Source: Escherichia phage mogra. From it: a stretch of 64,000 nucleotides of DNA. The notes under the pieces are model-generated. The model was not told the DNA's origin. It ran no database searches and saw only the letters and a list, made by a program, of their open reading frames with translations. The stretch lies in sequence record MN850579.1, one strand, 5' to 3'. Shown here piece by piece: positions 5,709 to 45,263 of this stretch. Made by a program: the position numbers and the translations under genes. Each line of letters starts with the position of its first letter. The stretch's first letter is position 1.

Positions 5709-7279
5709 TAAAAATCCTCTTGTTCTTGGTCGGGGTCTTGGAAACGAGCCTCTTTCGACTCTTCTTCAATTTGCTTAGCCTCTTGTTCAATTTCCTCATC
5801 AGACATCTGAAGAATATCTTTCATAGCTGTTCTGTGAGAAATATATTTACCAATAAATGGTTCGGCCATCTGAAGCATATTAATGCGACGCTCCAGAATC
5901 TCAGCATCCTTTAATTCCGAGAAATAACTATCCCGATGAAATTTTATCTTAATATTATTTATTTCATCATTCCACTCATCTTCTGTAATAATTCCTTTAA
6001 GAATTAAATTAGTTTTAAGCGGGTCTAGGAATATCTCTTCAAATTTATGTTGCAGCTCACGAATAAATTTACCAAATGACAATTCATCTCGTGTAATAGA
6101 AGTACCAGCATCAAACTGTATACCACCTTGGTCACTTGGAATACGGGTAATAGGAATACGTAAAGCCATATAAAGCGCATTACGGAACCAACGTACATCT
6201 TCCATATTTCCGGTATTATCTGCACCTGGTAATGTGTCAACTTCTGTTACTGCTTTACCATCACGTCGTTGTAACCAATAATCTTCGGTCATCGACATAA
6301 TATGCTGTTGGTTTTTAATCTTGCCTGTAGTAGCATCATATGCAATACGGTTTTTCATCGTATTCATAACATGTTGCATATGTTCTGCTGCTTTTCTTGA
6401 AGGCATATTACCTGTATCAACGTACCATACACGACGATCGGGAGCACGAGTAATACGATAAATTACGACGGCATCTTCAAGAAGTTTTAATTGGTTCGCT
6501 GGCTTAATAGCCCGATGCAAATAACCGATGATATTTTTACCACAACAATCAACTAAACCAGAATGGGCGTAAACAATCGCGGCTTTAGGGATTTTTATTT
6601 TTGTGCCCGCTTCATATATGCGACCATCACAAGCATAAGATTCGTGTGATGTGTCATAAATGAAATATTCTTTATAACCCTTGACTATTTTAACACCGGC
6701 TTCAGTGGTTGTAATAACTTCACGGACATATTGAACTTGACGTGGGTCTAAACGACGAAGCTCTTTAATACCTTCTTTAGGGCGTTTAGGGTCAATAATT
6801 TTATGGAAGAAAATTCGAGAATCTACATACCAACGCCTAAAATGGTCTGAACCTTTACGTTGGAAAGATAAATGATTTAACACTTCGTTAAATTCATCCA
6901 ACATCATTGATTTGATATTTGGACTAAATTTTGTGTTGTCTAAATTTATAGAAACGACTTCTGTATCATCTTCATACACGATAGCATCGGAAACTATTTC
7001 AGAGACTGCATTATCCACTTCATAGTTCGTCATCAAATTTCGATACGTATCGATTAATTCACGGGTTGATTTGAGCCCTGGTTCTTGACTACCGAACATT
7101 CTCTGAAACATAGCATTATATGTTTGCTGTGCTTCATTTTCAGATACTTCGTATTCTTTAGCGCCGTCATCTAATTTTGGTGCGGTGATAGATTCTAAAT
7201 TTTCTTTTTCTTGGTCTTTGTAATCACGTTCGTCCATTTTTGCCCATGGAGCAAACAAACTTAAGATATTAAATTTCAT
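5708..7279 (-). CDS. 20: gp20 portal vertex protein
   Basis: 523 aa; T4 gp20-like sequence and position. Confidence 0.95.
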
Positions 7280-34730: not shown

Positions 34731-35042
34731 ATGAAAACTTATCAAGAGTTTATCGCTGAAGCTACTAAAGCCGATAAAAATTTTATTATTAACACCACCG
34801 GTCCGTTAGATGATGAATACGCTAATGCTATTATTAAGTCAATTTCTAATCAAGGCGTTGAAGTAACAAATTTCGAATATAAGAAAAATGATACTTATAT
34901 GATAATTAGTATCAAAAAAGGTTCAAAAGCCAAAATTAAATCTGCGTTTGGTGTTATGCGAGTTGACCAAATCGATAACCACGATTTTTCACAAACAGGG
35001 GTCAAACGCCAAAATACCATTTCTTCTAAAGGCATAAAATAA
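34731..35042 (+). CDS. ipI: Internal protein (IPI-like) with capsid-targeting sequence
   Basis: N-terminus MKTYQEFIAEA is the T4 capsid-targeting sequence with gp21 L/I-x-E site; next to 57B as in T4. Confidence 0.75.
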   Translation: MKTYQEFIAEATKADKNFIINTTGPLDDEYANAIIKSISNQGVEVTNFEYKKNDTYMIISIKKGSKAKIKSAFGVMRVDQIDNHDFSQTGVKRQNTISSKGIK

Positions 35043-39594: not shown

Positions 39595-39602
39595 AATAAT
39601 AC

Positions 39603-39624
39603 GGAGGACTCCGGTCCTCCTTTT
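39603..39624 (+). terminator. Rho-independent terminator
   Basis: GGAGGAC-TCCG-GTCCTCC + TTTT. Confidence 0.8.
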
Positions 39625-39643
39625 GGATAATAAAGGAGTTAAC

Positions 39644-40246
39644 ATGCGAAACCAAAATAATGATATTGACTCAATGTTCGAAGAGTTCCGAGATAAGGTA
39701 AATCCACCTACGTCTTTAGTTGATTCATTACGATATGTTGCAACTGGACGTAAATGGTACTGGTCGTCTTCTTATGAGACCACCGAGAAAACGGCTAGCC
39801 ATAGCAGAAAATCTTTATTAGCCCCAGGTATTATGATTCATGATATCGGAGCTATTGCTAAACTAGTTGCAGACCATGATATTAGATTCACTGATTTCGT
39901 TGCTCCTACGTGGTCTGTTTGTTGTTTAAACACTGAATGGGAATATATCAGCGAACGCTCTGAAGATTATTATGGCTTTAGAGATAAGCTTCTGAGGTCT
40001 AATATGTTTTATATCGATACAGAAGTTCTAGTCGATAATAAAAAATATTACTTTACGTTAATCATCGATTCTGAAACTATGTATGAAGGCAAGCCTTTGC
40101 TTAAGAGAGTTGATGCTTTAAGTGCTATTGATGCGCTTTATGAAACTATGGTTGTTAGTCCTAATTTCACTAATAATTTAATCCTTGAGCAATTTATTAT
40201 GGAATGTAGAGAATATGTCAAAGCCAACCCTATACATGCCAAGTAA
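39644..40246 (+). CDS. Hypothetical protein
   Basis: ATG after AAGGAG SD; about 200 aa; C-terminal ...QFIMECREYV. Confidence 0.65.
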   Translation: MRNQNNDIDSMFEEFRDKVNPPTSLVDSLRYVATGRKWYWSSSYETTEKTASHSRKSLLAPGIMIHDIGAIAKLVADHDIRFTDFVAPTWSVCCLNTEWEYISERSEDYYGFRDKLLRSNMFYIDTEVLVDNKKYYFTLIIDSETMYEGKPLLKRVDALSAIDALYETMVVSPNFTNNLILEQFIMECREYVKANPIHAK

Positions 40247-40610
40247 GCCCTGGGCGTATGAATACAAGCGTAAATTAATCCCAAATGAAGTATTATTTGG
40301 CCCTATTTTAGCTTTAGCATTTTTAATCTTTATGATTATAGGAGCTGTTTTAGATTCTAGTGAAGTTATATCGTCTGATGCAGCATTTTCATTAATGTTC
40401 GTCGCACCACTTATTGTACCGTTTTTATTAATGCCTATTAATTGGGTAGGATATTGGCACCAAGGCCGTCATCACAGAGCCCGATTAAGAGAATGGAAAG
40501 TTCAGTGCGCAAAAGCCCAAGCTCAGTATGATGAAGCTGTTAAAAAGTATGAATATGAAGAAGCTATGGAATTCGTTAAGGAAATAAGATGCAAAAGCCT
40601 CAACTCTTAA
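40215..40610 (+). CDS. Small membrane protein
   Basis: About 131 aa; two hydrophobic helices; start overlaps upstream gene. Confidence 0.55.
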   Translation: MSKPTLYMPSKPWAYEYKRKLIPNEVLFGPILALAFLIFMIIGAVLDSSEVISSDAAFSLMFVAPLIVPFLLMPINWVGYWHQGRHHRARLREWKVQCAKAQAQYDEAVKKYEYEEAMEFVKEIRCKSLNS

Positions 40611-40948
40611 CCGTATGGCCTTCTCTTGGTGAGAACATTCTAATTTTTATTATGAGTATTGGCATGGGATTTGCCTTTGGATTAGTTGGATTTCTTATTG
40701 ACGGCGTTGTGTTAGGATTTATAGGGAACACTGGTGGATTCACAGACCAATGGCAGGACTTACGGTATACCCAAGCCTTTGCATCCATCGCATCATTTTG
40801 TACTGTAGTCTATTTTTACTACGATTTTATAAACCATAACAAGAAAAATAAAAAGATTTACGCTTCTCAAATGATTAGTTATAATGAACTTCTAGCTAAA
40901 CGTGAAAATGAAACAATCGAAAACTTTATTAAGGAATGTAGAAAATGA
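40589..40948 (+). CDS. Small membrane protein, C-terminal NFIKECRK
   Basis: 119 aa; TM helices; C-terminal FIKECR motif shared with 43098 and 44091 genes. Confidence 0.65.
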   Translation: MQKPQLLTVWPSLGENILIFIMSIGMGFAFGLVGFLIDGVVLGFIGNTGGFTDQWQDLRYTQAFASIASFCTVVYFYYDFINHNKKNKKIYASQMISYNELLAKRENETIENFIKECRK

Positions 40949-41250
40949 GTAAGATTATTGAAATTAAAGTACCAGAGTTTAATGATGCCAAATCCGCTTC
41001 AGATGCAATTTATAAACTTCTGAATCAAGCTGAACGTATCGAAGAAGAAGCAACAAAGATCGCAGACCAATATGCCGTGTCATTTTCTGTAGGTGATTAT
41101 GGTAGCGGTCGTACTTATTATCCTAAGGGTGAAATCGTATCCCAGTGGATGAAAGATGAAATTGAAAATAATGGTGGCGATGTTAAGCGTGAAGGTAATG
41201 GTTACGTTATTACTGAAGGTGCTTGGGTTTCGTCTTCTGCGTTGTGCTAA
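40945..41250 (+). CDS. Small protein, paralog family member 1 (C-terminal GAWVSSSALC)
   Basis: 101 aa; ATGA overlap with upstream gene. Confidence 0.65.
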   Translation: MSKIIEIKVPEFNDAKSASDAIYKLLNQAERIEEEATKIADQYAVSFSVGDYGSGRTYYPKGEIVSQWMKDEIENNGGDVKREGNGYVITEGAWVSSSALC

Positions 41251-41259
41251 GGAATCATT

Positions 41260-41532
41260 ATGTCTAAAGAACAAACCGAACTGGCTGAAGCTGTAGCAAA
41301 AATCTATGCAGCTATTGAGGCTGCCAAAGAAATTGCTGATAAACAAAACACAACATTCAACTTGTACCCAGCTTATGGTATGGGTGGAACCTATCATTCA
41401 CCCAGACATCTTAAAGCCGATCTTGAACGTTGTACAAAAAACGGCTATGCTGAATGGGCTGACGTTTACCAATACGACTACAACCTGAGCCTCGAAACCG
41501 GTGGTTGGGTTGCATCTTCTCACACTTGCTAA
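41260..41532 (+). CDS. Small protein, paralog family member 2 (C-terminal GGWVASSHTC)
   Basis: 90 aa; SD TAAGGAA. Confidence 0.65.
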   Translation: MSKEQTELAEAVAKIYAAIEAAKEIADKQNTTFNLYPAYGMGGTYHSPRHLKADLERCTKNGYAEWADVYQYDYNLSLETGGWVASSHTC

Positions 41533-41541
41533 GGAAACAAT

Positions 41542-41739
41542 ATGTCTCGTGAATTAGATTGTGCTGTACGTACGGCAGTAGCTGCTCTGGAAAACCTGTT
41601 CCAAATTGCAACAGAAGAACGCGAAGAAGTTACATTATGGATTGAAGATAACGCAGGTCTGAATCTCCAGGACGCGATCTCATTATCCCACAATAGTATC
41701 ACTGTTCAAGGCTGGGTATCATCTAGTTATTCTTGCTAA
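41542..41739 (+). CDS. Small protein, paralog family member 3 (C-terminal QGWVSSSYSC)
   Basis: 65 aa; SD TAAGGAAA. Confidence 0.6.
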   Translation: MSRELDCAVRTAVAALENLFQIATEEREEVTLWIEDNAGLNLQDAISLSHNSITVQGWVSSSYSC

Positions 41740-41744
41740 AACAG

Positions 41745-41802
41745 TTTACAACAAGATAGGGCTATGTTATAGTAGTCCTATCAAAAACAAATGGAGTCCA
41801 CA
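41745..41802 (+). promoter_or_regulatory. Early promoter cassette (PeSL)
   Basis: TTTACA -35, TATAGT -10 in TAGGGCTA/TAGTCCTA hairpin, leader AAATGGAG. Confidence 0.7.
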
Positions 41803-42042
41803 ATGATTTATTACGAAAGTATCGGAACCAAAGTGGTTGGTAAAACCATTACTCGTGAAAAGTTTGCAAAGATATTCGATATGCGTTATAAAAAATCTGA
41901 ACACAAAGGCATCCGATTCGAAGATGCGCACTGTACAATTTGCCCTTATAATGAAGACATAAACGGTACAATCGTTCCATTGGTAGAGGCTTCACACGAT
42001 GACCTCTGGGACGAATATAATATCGCATGTCGTGAAATTTAA
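41803..42042 (+). CDS. Hypothetical protein
   Basis: 79 aa from second ATG (GGAG SD). Confidence 0.55.
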   Translation: MIYYESIGTKVVGKTITREKFAKIFDMRYKKSEHKGIRFEDAHCTICPYNEDINGTIVPLVEASHDDLWDEYNIACREI

Positions 42043-42070
42043 GTTAATGAATTAATCCGAGGAAAATATT

Positions 42071-43027
42071 ATGATGTTAGTTATTGGTTCTCGTGCACTT
42101 CACTATCACGGTCTTATTGATTCTAGCGCTATCAAAAATAGCGATTGGGACTTTATTGCGGACCAAGGTTCTTGGAATGCATTCAAAAATCAAATGATGG
42201 GTGTATATGTTCACCAAGATAACCCTGATGTCCAAGTTTTCAAATGCTTCCATAATGGACGCGAAACTCATTTTGAAGCATATATTGTTCCGGCAATCAC
42301 TAATGTCCGTGAATTAGTCGGTGAACTCACTCCTGAAGATTTCACGTCTTCTTATGACCTTTTAAAATACGCCAAGAAAAATTTGACTAAAGACCGTTTG
42401 AACGGGTTTTACTGGGCAACTCCTGAGATATGTCTTGCAATTAAGATGTCTCATCGTTTCAAGAAAAATAATCCATTCTTTTTAAAGACTATGAACCATA
42501 TTCAGTATCTTCGTGGTAAAGGTGTTACACTGAACGATGAACTTACTGAAATTATGCTGAAACGCCAGAAAGAAACCTTGAACTATGCTCACCCGGTTCT
42601 TGACACTTCTAAAAGTGCGTTCTTTAAAGATGACATCTATACATATGACCATGATACTATTCATGAAGCCATTGCACTAACAGACCGTCCGGCTTATACA
42701 TTTTATATGAAAGACGGTTCTGAAGTCATGACCTCACGCGAGAAGTTCGAATCGTTACCAGAAATGGTCAAATTGGCCGGTGTATATGAAGAATCATGTG
42801 TACTAGCATTAGAACGTTCTCAGATTCCTAATGACTTTAAAATTAACCCTGAAGCCAGTTTCATGATGGCATTAGAAAAAGTCTGCACAAGCATCACCTC
42901 CGGTTGGTTCCGTGAATACGCCTGGGAAAACTACAGCAAAGTAGTAAGTATGTACCAAAGCTTAGGACATAACGATTACGTCAAACGTTTCAAACAAAAT
43001 TTCCATATGGTAAAACCTTTCAAATAA
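42071..43027 (+). CDS. Nucleotidyltransferase-fold protein (pol-beta superfamily, AbiEii/DUF1814-like motif)
   Basis: 318 aa; N-terminal VIGSRALHYHGL...SDWDF fits hG[GS]...[DE]h[DE] NTase motif. Confidence 0.5.
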   Translation: MMLVIGSRALHYHGLIDSSAIKNSDWDFIADQGSWNAFKNQMMGVYVHQDNPDVQVFKCFHNGRETHFEAYIVPAITNVRELVGELTPEDFTSSYDLLKYAKKNLTKDRLNGFYWATPEICLAIKMSHRFKKNNPFFLKTMNHIQYLRGKGVTLNDELTEIMLKRQKETLNYAHPVLDTSKSAFFKDDIYTYDHDTIHEAIALTDRPAYTFYMKDGSEVMTSREKFESLPEMVKLAGVYEESCVLALERSQIPNDFKINPEASFMMALEKVCTSITSGWFREYAWENYSKVVSMYQSLGHNDYVKRFKQNFHMVKPFK

Positions 43028-43040
43028 TTTCGCAAAACTG

Positions 43041-43097
43041 TTTACACAATTATAGGACTATGTTATAGTAGTCCTACCAAAACATGAGGAGAATATT
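43041..43097 (+). promoter_or_regulatory. Early promoter cassette (PeSL)
   Basis: TTTACA -35, TATAGT -10 in TAGGACTA/TAGTCCTA hairpin. Confidence 0.7.
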
Positions 43098-43403
43098 ATG
43101 AAATTAGGCGAAACCAACCGAATTGGTCTTTTAACAATATTTGCATCACTTTTTTACGCAACTCTTTCTGTTGCAGTATTACAAAAGGCTTACAGTATGG
43201 ATGGTGTGCCTGGTTGTATATTCTTATCACCGTTTTTATTATTCGTCGGAGCTTTGTTATTATATGCCACGACTAGTTTCGACCATAATGTCTGGGTCAA
43301 TTATAAACGTAAATTGACCGAAGAAGAACACGCAGAAGCTCGTAAAAAAGCTATTGAATCTACCAATCTAGAAAATTTCATTAAAGAATGTCGAGGAAAA
43401 TAA
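43098..43403 (+). CDS. Small membrane protein, C-terminal NFIKECRGK
   Basis: 101 aa; two TM helices; FIKECR C-terminal motif. Confidence 0.65.
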   Translation: MKLGETNRIGLLTIFASLFYATLSVAVLQKAYSMDGVPGCIFLSPFLLFVGALLLYATTSFDHNVWVNYKRKLTEEEHAEARKKAIESTNLENFIKECRGK

Positions 43404-43404
43404 T

Positions 43405-44091
43405 ATGAATAGTTCTAAAGTGTTTAATAGTCAAGCTCGTGCAATAGGTGGTTTTGCTCATGCGATTAAAAACGACCAGATTAAAAACGAGCCTATGTTC
43501 TTTAACTGCGATTTGAATTTTGCTTTTGATAATGGCGGCCCAATTACTCGTAGCTTTATCCAAAATCTCCCTGACGATTGGAAAGACTCGGATGTAGTAT
43601 TTGATTCACGAGTCCACATGCTGATGCCTGGTTGGTACCCTGCTATTCCTGGATATCACCATGACGATGTTCCACGCCCTGATATTCCAGTTGGTCAACA
43701 TTTTATTACTGCAGGACAACCTGATTATGACAATCCTCGCTATTTGTCTGAACATATTCTTGGTCTTGTTAACGCTGATGTGTGTCCTACTCATTTTGCA
43801 ACAGGAACTGCAGAGTTCAGTCAGATTCCTGATGGCGAACTTATCTATCGCCAGTGGCACAAAGAAGTCCTCGAAAAAATCGAAAAAGGCGAACTAGAGA
43901 AATGGGAAGCTCCAGACCGTACTCTTCTTCAGTTTGATTGGCAAACATGGCACACTGGTTCTCGTGCAATTAGTAATGGATGGCGTTGGTTCGGACGTGT
44001 ATCTCGTAATACAGACCGAGTTAAAAAGATTACCAATGAAATTCGTGTCAATGCCCAAGTTTATCTGGAATTCCCTATGGAAGGTTGGTAA
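43405..44091 (+). CDS. Hypothetical protein (contains PGYHHDD motif)
   Basis: 228 aa ORF, translationally coupled. Confidence 0.65.
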   Translation: MNSSKVFNSQARAIGGFAHAIKNDQIKNEPMFFNCDLNFAFDNGGPITRSFIQNLPDDWKDSDVVFDSRVHMLMPGWYPAIPGYHHDDVPRPDIPVGQHFITAGQPDYDNPRYLSEHILGLVNADVCPTHFATGTAEFSQIPDGELIYRQWHKEVLEKIEKGELEKWEAPDRTLLQFDWQTWHTGSRAISNGWRWFGRVSRNTDRVKKITNEIRVNAQVYLEFPMEGW

Positions 44092-44582
44092 TGATTAACA
44101 AAACATATTGGTCTAATATAGACGATGGCAACGAAGGTATTTCGTATTATTCGGTAGATTGGACAGGATGTCCATCCTACTTAGTGAAACATATTTGCCA
44201 AGAATTTAAAATCTACCAGCCAGCAGGTATTATTGTGAACAGATACATTAATGGATATCAACCTATCGATGAAGTAATACGAACAACTCAAGCTGAGCTT
44301 GAAAAGTTTTTCAATAAGTGCCAATGGATAACAGGATGGATTATATTTGTACCGTCTATATGGTTTTTTAGTACTAAAGTAAGTGCCTTTGCTGTACTAG
44401 ATATTATCGCTATCTTATTAGCATCTACTATCGTAAGTATTATTGGTGGTATTATTGGTGGAGGTATTGTAGGCATCATTATTAATCTTATTAAAAGTAG
44501 TTTACAAGAACATAAAGACAAGATAAAAGCCAAGAATAATGAAGTTGAACGTTTTATTACCGAATGCAGGAATTTGAGATGA
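44091..44582 (+). CDS. Membrane protein with Gly-rich TM segment, C-terminal RFITECRNLR
   Basis: 163 aa; TAATG overlap with upstream stop; IIGGIIGGGIVGIII hydrophobic segment. Confidence 0.65.
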   Translation: MINKTYWSNIDDGNEGISYYSVDWTGCPSYLVKHICQEFKIYQPAGIIVNRYINGYQPIDEVIRTTQAELEKFFNKCQWITGWIIFVPSIWFFSTKVSAFAVLDIIAILLASTIVSIIGGIIGGGIVGIIINLIKSSLQEHKDKIKAKNNEVERFITECRNLR

Positions 44583-44815
44583 GTATAGCAATTTACATTA
44601 AATCAGAATCATGTGATAGTTATCTGTACACATACGATAAAGATGTGTCAGAAGAAAAAATCAAAGACGATCTTAATATGGACCTTGATATGTTCTGTCC
44701 TATTGCAGATTACAAACTTGCGGTCTCTAATAGTGAAAGTCCATCTAAAGAAACGCGCATCGAAGAATTTATGTCCGAATTAATGGCCAAATCATGGGAC
44801 CGAGATGATGAGTAA
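44579..44815 (+). CDS. Hypothetical acidic protein
   Basis: 78 aa; ATGA overlap with upstream gene. Confidence 0.55.
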   Translation: MSIAIYIKSESCDSYLYTYDKDVSEEKIKDDLNMDLDMFCPIADYKLAVSNSESPSKETRIEEFMSELMAKSWDRDDE

Positions 44816-45263
44816 GAAAAATAAAGTGAAAGAACTATCAGCCGGTATTATTTTCCTTACCGAAGATAAAGAATTATTCATGGGGCGTGTAACTGGTTCT
44901 TGTCCTAAAGGTTCTTTAGCTCATAGGTGGGATATTCCTAAAGGCCGTGTCGAACCTGGCGAATCTTCTATTGAAGCCGCTATTCGTGAATGCGAAGAAG
45001 AAACTGGGTTTACACAATATGACCCTGCCTTCCTGAAAGACCTAGGTGAACATCGTTACTCAGACAATAAGAATATTCATCTGTTCCTATATGCCATCCC
45101 TGTAGAGCACGAGCAATTCAGAAACAGTGTTTGTAATTCCTATCATACATTCCCAGACGGACGACAGATTCCTGAATTTGATGCATTCGCTTTAATTAAA
45201 CCTTCTCAATGGGAATATGTGATGGGCAAATCATTATATAAGGTGCTCACTACCCTCCTATAA
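44805..45263 (+). CDS. nudE: Nudix hydrolase (NudE / e.1-like)
   Basis: 152 aa; Nudix box GRVEPGESSIEAAIRECEEETG; immediately upstream of endolysin as in T4. Confidence 0.88.
   Translation: MMSKKNKVKELSAGIIFLTEDKELFMGRVTGSCPKGSLAHRWDIPKGRVEPGESSIEAAIRECEEETGFTQYDPAFLKDLGEHRYSDNKNIHLFLYAIPVEHEQFRNSVCNSYHTFPDGRQIPEFDAFALIKPSQWEYVMGKSLYKVLTTLL

Follow-up and report, generated by a model that had tools for sequence, protein, structure and literature searches.

Why should several small proteins with otherwise dissimilar bodies, encoded in one densely packed part of a T-even phage genome, end in the same few residues? We addressed this question in a 64,000-nucleotide (nt) stretch of DNA from Escherichia phage mogra (sequence record MN850579.1; hereafter the window), where a sequence-only reading had noticed that a set of small genes shares a C-terminal F-I-K-E-C-R motif and had attributed this to a junction that is reused for recombination and translational coupling. 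The genes are orthologues of e.5, e.4, e.3, RB69ORF133c (hereafter ORF133c), and e.2. Our analysis leans, on balance, toward the view that these are non-essential early accessory genes whose products carry a shared C-terminal cytoplasmic module, a docking helix, that is under selection and dual-coded.

Five small genes and their C-terminal tail

The window belongs to an RB69-like Mosigvirus. The five genes lie on the plus strand in a region (39600-44900) that has 97-98% DNA identity to RB69-like Mosigvirus phages, with 97% for RB69 itself. They comprise e.5 (39644-40246, 200 amino acids (aa); RB69 annotation and phrog_2607, E 1.5e-95), e.4 (40215-40610, 131 aa; phrog_2604, E 2.7e-64), e.3 (40589-40948, 119 aa; phrog_2330, E 8e-50), ORF133c (43098-43403, 101 aa; phrog_9798, E 2e-65), and e.2 (44091-44582, 163 aa; phrog_2203, E 1.6e-54, and RB69 annotation). 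For e.2, e.3, e.4, and e.5 the match to the family PHROG profile spans each whole protein, and the full-length phrog_2604 match of e.4 supports its start at 40215. A further 163-aa protein, P0059, is near-identical to window e.2. All five are annotated as hypothetical or predicted membrane proteins, and databases keep them as separate, unrelated families of unknown function; precomputed Pfam assignments on close homologues are PF26896, PF26873, and PF26876, the last on homologues of e.5. The gene order e.6, e.5, e.4, e.3, ..., e.2, nudE, e is common to RB69, T4, VR26, and MX01. A block of 3.1 kb sets e.3 and e.2 apart, and T4 is without this block. In T4, the older names of e.2, e.3, e.4, and e.5 are msp7, msp6, msp5, and msp4, respectively.

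The open reading frames (ORFs) and their C-terminal sequences are as earlier described. The e.5 protein ends in ..LEQFIMECREYVKANPIHAK (motif FIMECR, 40193-40210), e.4 in ..MEFVKEIRCKSLNS (FVKEIR, 40572-40589), e.3 in ..IENFIKECRK (FIKECR, 40925-40942), ORF133c in ..LENFIKECRGK (FIKECR, 43377-43394), and e.2 in ..VERFITECRNLR (FITECR, 44553-44570). Translated in six frames, the 64-kb window yields five occurrences of a strict pattern, F[IV].E[CI]R, all of them on the plus strand at the 3' ends of these five genes, 1-11 residues before the stop codon. Trinucleotide-block shuffles contained a mean of 0.21 occurrences (maximum 2) and amino-acid shuffles of the long ORFs a mean of 0.03, while a scan of the remaining ~104 kb of the RB69 genome for the same pattern revealed no further real gene with the motif. 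The shuffles and the genome-wide RB69 scan rule out a chance origin of the shared motif.

The motif was also found in the e.2-e.5 orthologues of other T-even phages. The tails of T4 e.5, e.4, e.3, and e.2 read FVKECR, FVKESR, FVIDCR, and FITECR, respectively. In VR26 (Gaprivervirus), the protein at the e.5 position carries FITECR and e.4, e.3, and e.2 carry FIKEVR, FIKECK, and FIEECR; in MX01 (Dhakavirus), where the e.4 gene is absent, the e.5-position protein, e.3, and e.2 carry FIAECR, FIKECK, and FIEECR. Among the orthologues from T4, Gaprivervirus, and Dhakavirus the tail retains the form F-[IV]-x-[ED]-x-[RK], in most cases with a Cys, at an overall protein identity between genera of 22-47%; window e.3, for example, is 36% identical to T4 e.3 and has a conserved tail. 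The consensus of the tails is hydrophobic-[E/N]-x-F-[I/V]-x-[E/D]-C-[R/K].

These genes are widespread among sequenced phages, with e.3 present in 716 phage records and e.2 in 680. ORF133c was identified in 149 records by tblastn, all at least 80% identical and all from Escherichia, Shigella, or Enterobacteria phages or Mosigvirus, and is restricted to Mosigvirus-type records. The e.2 gene of the T4 reference (NC_000866, 3502-3961, minus strand) is split by a frameshift, appearing as e.2a and e.2b in T4T; the tail FITECRKLK persists there in another frame, directly upstream of nudE, and sister phages have an intact 162-aa e.2. In VR26 (locus L012, 5605-5963), an upstream ATG of e.4 yields MRTLYLPSKPEKF.., which matches T4 e.4 (MSKPSLYLPSKP) and overlaps the upstream tail as in T4; VR26 e.4 probably begins upstream of its annotated start (5697).

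We then asked how far the tail extends beyond these phages. An exhaustive profile search with the tails against 1.84 billion representatives, made with a profile of 51 columns that has little power, returned six matches at E<=1e-3, all from the e-gene cluster. A word-indexed search of large protein collections with tail alignments identified only pieces of the same genes, a search of a large protein collection with e.3 alone identified close relatives only, and a search of IMG/VR with e.3 identified five loci only. As far as so short a profile has the power to tell, the tail module appears to be restricted to enterobacterial Tevenvirinae.

The tailed proteins had been described as small membrane proteins with a common cytoplasmic tail. 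The membrane assignment stands for four of them: hydropathy reveals hydrophobic stretches in e.4, e.3, ORF133c, and e.2 that are consistent with a hairpin of two transmembrane (TM) segments, followed by a basic stretch. It fails for e.5, which has no hydrophobic segment and is predicted to be a soluble rather than a membrane protein. In e.2, a soluble N-terminal domain of ~78 aa precedes the predicted hairpin and cytoplasmic tail, and in e.3 two long hydrophobic helices are followed by HNKKNKK and then by a cytoplasmic helical region. A cytoplasmic location of the tails is predicted, and agrees with the earlier description, because basic stretches follow the second TM segment (TM2) and the positive-inside rule would place these in the cytoplasm. 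An AlphaFold2 (AF2) model of e.5, which is of low confidence (predicted local distance difference test (pLDDT) 58.6), has the motif within the last helix (residues 179-194). The AF2 model of e.3 (pLDDT 50.1), of use for helix boundaries only, has helices at 9-45, 54-82, 90-107, and 110-118, with the motif in 110-118. The spacing of the hydrophobic residue, F, I/V, and C of the consensus (i, i+3, i+4, i+7) suggests that such a helix has one hydrophobic face.

Profile comparisons with hhalign, all of them based on shallow alignments, localize the similarity between the proteins to the same end. Probabilities were 91.6% for e.4 and e.3 (41 columns), 88% for e.3 and e.2 (35), 85% for e.3 and ORF133c (17), and 62% for e.2 and ORF133c (65), and all of this signal lay in the cytoplasmic region after TM2 (17-65 C-terminal columns). 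When the tail was removed, only an 18-column juxtamembrane signal between e.4 and e.3 was left (P 6e-4, probability 29%), and the TM segments had no detectable profile similarity between proteins. In phrog_2203, the e.2 family, the C-terminal half gives a weak match to ORF133c as well (E 1.9e-4). The e.4 and e.3 proteins have an N-terminus, M-[SQ]-K-P-x-L, in common; it is coded inside the upstream tails and is the expected product of unequal crossing-over at the junctions. The VR26/MX01 e.5-position protein carries the tail FIxECREYAK, and its body, with the tail removed, has no detectable similarity to that of T4/RB69 e.5 (hhalign probability 0.2%). Judged from these comparisons, what the proteins share is a C-terminal module, and full-length paralogy of e.4 and e.3 is plausible.

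Peptide and initiation region in the same nucleotides

The DNA encoding the tail had been proposed to carry the ribosome-binding site (RBS) of the next gene, and it holds the Shine-Dalgarno (SD) sequence and start of that gene at all five junctions. The first base of the next ATG lies 0 to 11 nt past the last base of the motif, and at the shortest distance the ATG begins 1 nt inside the Arg codon of the motif. Because the genes are packed head to tail, these nucleotides double as the initiation region of the next gene. The last 11 codons of e.5 overlap the start of e.4. In the e.4 tail, the K-E codons AAGGAA are the SD for e.3, the ATG of which spans the R-C codons (AGA TGC), and in the e.3 tail AAGGAA with a 9-nt spacer serves the next ATG at 40945 (ATGA overlap). 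The R-G-K-stop of ORF133c (CGAGGAAAATAA) acts as a generic initiation module, here serving the next gene (ATG 43405), and the C-R-N codons of e.2, TGCAGGAAT, give the SD for the gene with its ATG at 44579. The ATG of e.2 itself (44091) lies one base inside the stop codon of the preceding gene. In this packed region, where most neighbors overlap or abut, genes as a rule have their RBS within the final codons of the gene before them, so the RBS is present as proposed but is not special to the tailed genes. A near-identical initiation module, CGAGGAAAATAWTATGA, is found at three gene starts in the window (42058-42074, 43085-43101, and 43392-43408), and the third copy doubles as the R-G-K-stop end of ORF133c.

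The earlier expectation that the junctions would align as DNA was borne out in part. Only the tails of e.5 and e.3 register as a nucleotide repeat (22 nt, 91%); the other tails do not, and are alike in DNA mainly because they encode the same peptide. The position of the SD relative to the motif varies: it coincides with the x-E codons (AAGGAA, GAGGAA) in some tails and with the C-R-x codons (TGCAGGAA, TGTCGAGGAA) in others, or it lies farther downstream, as is the case at the e.5 position of VR26 and MX01. Since the SD shifts relative to the motif, it leaves the F-[IV] and E-C codons unexplained. The peptide ENFIKECR is identical in e.3 and ORF133c, with synonymous differences at 4 of its 8 codons, and among 26 cluster representatives of the VR26/MX01-type e.5-position protein F, I, C, and R show no change, position x holds A, T, or K, and D takes the place of E once. 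Substitution patterns of this kind show purifying selection on the tail peptide itself, and they contradict the notion that the motif is a mere by-product of a DNA junction.

Codon choice within the tail reveals the other constraint. Lys at position x is encoded by AAG in 7 of 8 instances, versus 26% genome-wide (P ~5e-4), and the lone AAA is in ORF133c, where the SD is elsewhere. Likewise, in the RB69-like and T4 tails all 9 Arg codons are purine-rich (AGA, AGG, or CGA), and none is CGT, CGC, or CGG (P ~2e-4). On the evidence of these codons, dual coding is shown: the tail nucleotides also contain the next gene's SD, spacer, and ATG, to which codon choice is adapted. Peptide and DNA are thus both constrained as read from these alignments, and the two constraints are distinguishable. 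An RNA structure common to the junctions is ruled out; no shared fold was identified, and with z-scores of +0.55, +1.07, +1.54, +0.59, and -2.07 four of the five junctions were less structured than their shuffles.

Loss of whole genes at the junctions

The recombination part of the sequence-only reading gained support from relatives that have lost a tailed gene. T4 e.3 ends in ..GATTGCAGGAAAATTAAATGA and T4 e.2 in ..GAATGCAGGAAATTAAAATGA. In a T4-like contig (L007), e.3 ends in ..GATTGCAGGAAATTAAAATGAAAACA and is followed directly by nudE, the 485-bp e.2 being gone; the breakpoint lies within the shared TGCAGGAAA, and a hybrid tail, FVIDCRKLK, results. A 141-nt probe for this hybrid e.3/nudE junction found a single-piece match in 33 of 40 Tequatrovirus records among the matches listed, some of these being RefSeq/GenBank duplicates. 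Records with the e.2-less junction include PST, RB32, RB33, PP01, and UFV-AREG1. The loss of e.4 in MX01 and IME341 is equally precise, with a breakpoint within the AARGAGGTTCRWAATG module: VR26 carries A[A/G]GAGGTTC[A/G][A/T]AATG twice, at the junction of the e.5-position gene with e.4 and at that of e.4 with e.3, and in IME341 and MX01 a single copy of the module joins the e.5-position gene straight to e.3. The breakpoints of both losses lie in direct repeats of 9-16 nt, and after either loss the upstream tail is complete (hybrid but intact), as is the downstream initiation region. Comparison of these genomes shows that the repeated junctions are short homologies for precise whole-gene loss.

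A different kind of loss affects e.3. In LF82-31, phiE142, and PTE-Eco05 (L008, L009, and L010; ~5990-6090, corresponding to window 40606-40856), a 251-nt deletion has removed most of the gene. It spares the last 30 codons and so the RBS of the next gene, which is now in frame behind the e.4 stop codon. Recombination from tail to tail was rejected as the cause of this deletion, as its breakpoint is upstream of the motif. Each member of the set is dispensable, as follows from the natural loss of e.2, e.4, and most of e.3 together with the frameshifted T4 e.2. In OLB35 (L011, an UNVERIFIED record), a chimeric ORF at 6076-6258, P0008, consists of an N-terminal fragment of e.3 fused to a portion of the e.3 tail region and to the e.4 tail, with another copy of the latter next to it. 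Either the repeats have truly rearranged here or the sequence was misassembled.

Modular shuffling in T4-type phages has been described for promoter-early stem-loop (PeSL) cassettes (Arbiol et al., 2010, PMC2839356; Comeau et al., 2014, PMC4122927). PeSLs provide linker homologies between small non-essential genes and allow insertion or deletion without disturbing the expression of neighbors (PMC2839356), and the T4 recombination machinery needs <50 bp of homology (as cited in PMC2839356), with which the 9-16-nt repeats at the e.2 and e.4 breakpoints agree. The tail junctions are similar in that they are short repeats between small non-essential genes of a hyperplastic region and are linkers for gain and loss. 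However, PeSLs are intergenic transcription signals (a promoter plus a terminator-like stem-loop), whereas the tail junctions are coding, act in translation, and also encode a conserved peptide. A promoter scan identified no promoter-like site at the tail junctions, which, with four of the five less structured than shuffles, sets them apart from PeSLs. The e.2 and e.4 breakpoints also resemble T4 deletions between short direct repeats. Unlike in random repeat deletions of T4, the repeats here are functional gene junctions and the product is always an in-frame, translationally coupled array.

Elements that do resemble PeSLs are present in the block between e.3 and e.2. The promoter scan and a 49-nt repeat identified an early promoter, TTTACA-17-TATAGT, with an overlapping stem-loop at 41738-41786 on the plus strand, and a second copy at 43034-43082 on the same strand, directly upstream of ORF133c. 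The two 49-nt repeats are 86% identical, and both have an upstream TG and a -10 element in the loop of a 7-bp stem (AGGRCTA..TAGTCCT). By sequence, both look like PeSL-type cassette boundaries, and the element at 41738-41786 marks a boundary of transcription cassettes inside the inserted block.

The block contains several other genes. Two encode soluble, well-conserved proteins, one with DUF7277 and DUF7275 (42071-43027; E 1e-28 and 3e-79) and one of the ORF132c family (43405-44091; phrog_1843), and both are in VR26 and MX01 too. In VR26 (L012, 8818-9465), a 215-aa Cys-rich ORF lies upstream of the ORF132c homologue, in the slot of the Mosigvirus ORF133c, and might be a mobile endonuclease-type insertion. 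At 40945-41739, the window has three tandem small paralogues, RB69ORF139c, 137c, and 136c (phrog_899 and phrog_4882), all ending in W-V-[S/A]-S-S-x-x-C and with a repeated junction of their own, TGCTAAGGAAnCAnTATGTCT (48-nt repeat, 77%). VR26 and MX01 have five copies of this WVSSSxxC family, the second one in the block in which both C-terminus and junction are conserved.

Candidate roles of the tail

How might a selected, dual-coded tail have come to be shared, and what might it do? The gene set may have grown by tandem duplication or unequal crossing-over at the junctions, which would automatically hand each new copy the same tail. The tail could be a short amphipathic docking or oligomerisation helix that would gather the co-expressed proteins (four predicted N-in/C-in hairpins plus soluble e.5) at the inner face of the membrane. 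Alternatively, it could bind all five proteins to one common cytoplasmic partner. We favor a docking or oligomerisation helix because the genes, which overlap start-to-stop, are organized in two transcription units.

Several observations weigh against this view. Both AF2 models have low confidence (pLDDT 58.6 and 50.1, as above), the Cys is not found throughout, its place being taken by I, S, or V in e.4, and e.3 of VR26 and MX01 ends in K rather than R. In within-genome comparisons, codons at identical residues match in 79 of 125 cases versus 61 expected, and therefore some DNA-level constraint or gene conversion contributes to the similarity. The TM regions are without detectable similarity, so full-length paralogy is unproven, and, since phages without e.2, e.3, or e.4 exist in nature, none of the members is individually required. 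Docking is inferred from conservation, helical propensity, and co-expression only. Searches of Pfam, NCBIfam, and PDB sequences and of defence and anti-defence models gave no significant match to a named family, matches in PHROGs were of unknown function only, and a literature search on the functions of T4 e.2-e.6 returned nothing relevant. The roles in superinfection exclusion or lysis timing that had been suggested for these proteins thus found no backing, and the RB69 scan, which included imm, sp, rIII, and t, revealed no further motif.

If the signal resided in DNA only, the motif would be a reusable SD-spacer-ATG coupling cassette that is read as F-I-K-E-C-R, and the peptide would have no function of its own. 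Each motif does lie directly upstream of the next start codon, the AAG and AGR codon bias reveals selection for SD function, and generic initiation modules are reused at unrelated gene starts, as with the three copies of CGAGGAAAATAWTATGA. In addition, one and the same DNA module encodes K-E-V-R-N in VR26 e.4 and A-K-E-V-Q-N downstream of its e.5-position motif, and phages that are missing most of e.3 retain its last 30 codons. Yet the F-[IV] and E-C codons, which specify the best-conserved residues, fall outside any SD, the SD is found in three or more places with respect to the motif, and ENFIKECR is the same in e.3 and ORF133c despite the synonymous differences at half of its codons. Swaps of I for V and E for D around a free x are the signature of a protein motif, most other junctions of the region have an SD without such a peptide, and the junctions have no RNA structure in common. 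We consider a DNA-only origin of the motif distinctly unlikely. An explanation by plain tandem paralogy, to which we also give a low probability, if not a negligible one, would make the tail the slowest-diverging remnant of an ancestral protein and a structural part of each protein's own fold rather than a docking signal. The same tail is found on the soluble alpha/beta e.5, on the VR26/MX01 e.5-position protein with its body of no detectable similarity, and on hairpins with dissimilar TM segments, and a single structural role across such different bodies is unlikely. Paralogy would nonetheless account for profile similarity that reaches 17-65 columns upstream of the motif, for the N-termini and the GxhhD at the end of TM1 that e.4 and e.3 share, and for the neighboring WVSSSxxC family, which likewise comprises tandem copies with a conserved C-terminus and junction; the low-confidence e.5 model places the motif in the last helix of an alpha/beta domain, as a structural role would have it.

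A comparison with internal protein (IP) genes bears on one further explanation. The IP leader targets proteins into the prohead and is then cleaved off. Six genes of the window, at 34731, 35104, 37341, 45783, 46867, and 47487 on the plus strand, start with MK[TS][YF]xEF[IL]xE and flank the e-cluster on both sides; none of the five tailed proteins begins with the leader MK[TS]YxEF[IL]xE. IP loci are highly variable and associated with conserved flanking elements (PMC2839356). As in the IP loci, a short terminal peptide is common to otherwise dissimilar small proteins of plastic regions, but the IP leader is N-terminal, whereas the tail is C-terminal, is found on early membrane proteins, and is defined by the dipeptide C-R. 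The tail might be a processing or turnover signal, either a C-terminal degron for a host protease or a site of the T4 prohead-protease type that has a relationship to the MKTYxEFIxE leader. Its core, F-I-x-E, is similar to the EF[IL]xE of the six IP-like leaders and fits the [L/I]-x-E cleavage consensus of the T4 prohead protease. However, the leader acts inside proheads whereas the tailed proteins are early inner-membrane proteins, the C-R residues that define the tail are missing from the IP leaders, and known C-terminal degrons are non-polar whereas this tail is charged. A processing signal is very improbable, and we judge the resemblance of the motif to the EFIxE core of the leader to be coincidental.

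The docking-helix view can be extended to the junction as a whole, which could be a coding linker that combines a docking helix, the initiation region of the next gene, and a preferred crossover site. We regard this extension as quite doubtful. If it were true, a gene arriving by recombination would gain both coupled translation and a tail that joins it to the same membrane-associated assembly, and the junctions would be a translation-level counterpart of PeSL or integron cassettes that diversifies a phage membrane complex.

The genes themselves are known hypothetical genes. No annotation of a shared C-terminal motif, of dual coding, or of junction-mediated gene loss was found in the searched records and libraries, and these three features appear not to have been described before. 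These findings are variations on known themes of T4-type genome plasticity; they have no bearing on a long-standing open question, and any phenotype may be subtle. Even so, genes e.2-e.5 are present in roughly 700 sequenced T-even phage records, and a shared cytoplasmic tail connects four families that databases keep separate and predicts joint action or a common target. With F, I, C, and R, the tail offers a compact target for mutation in pull-downs and genetic studies, and the junctions are a clear natural case of dual coding, in which a peptide motif overlaps an RBS. Short functional repeats of this kind let a packed, translationally coupled array gain or lose whole genes cleanly, which complements the PeSL model.

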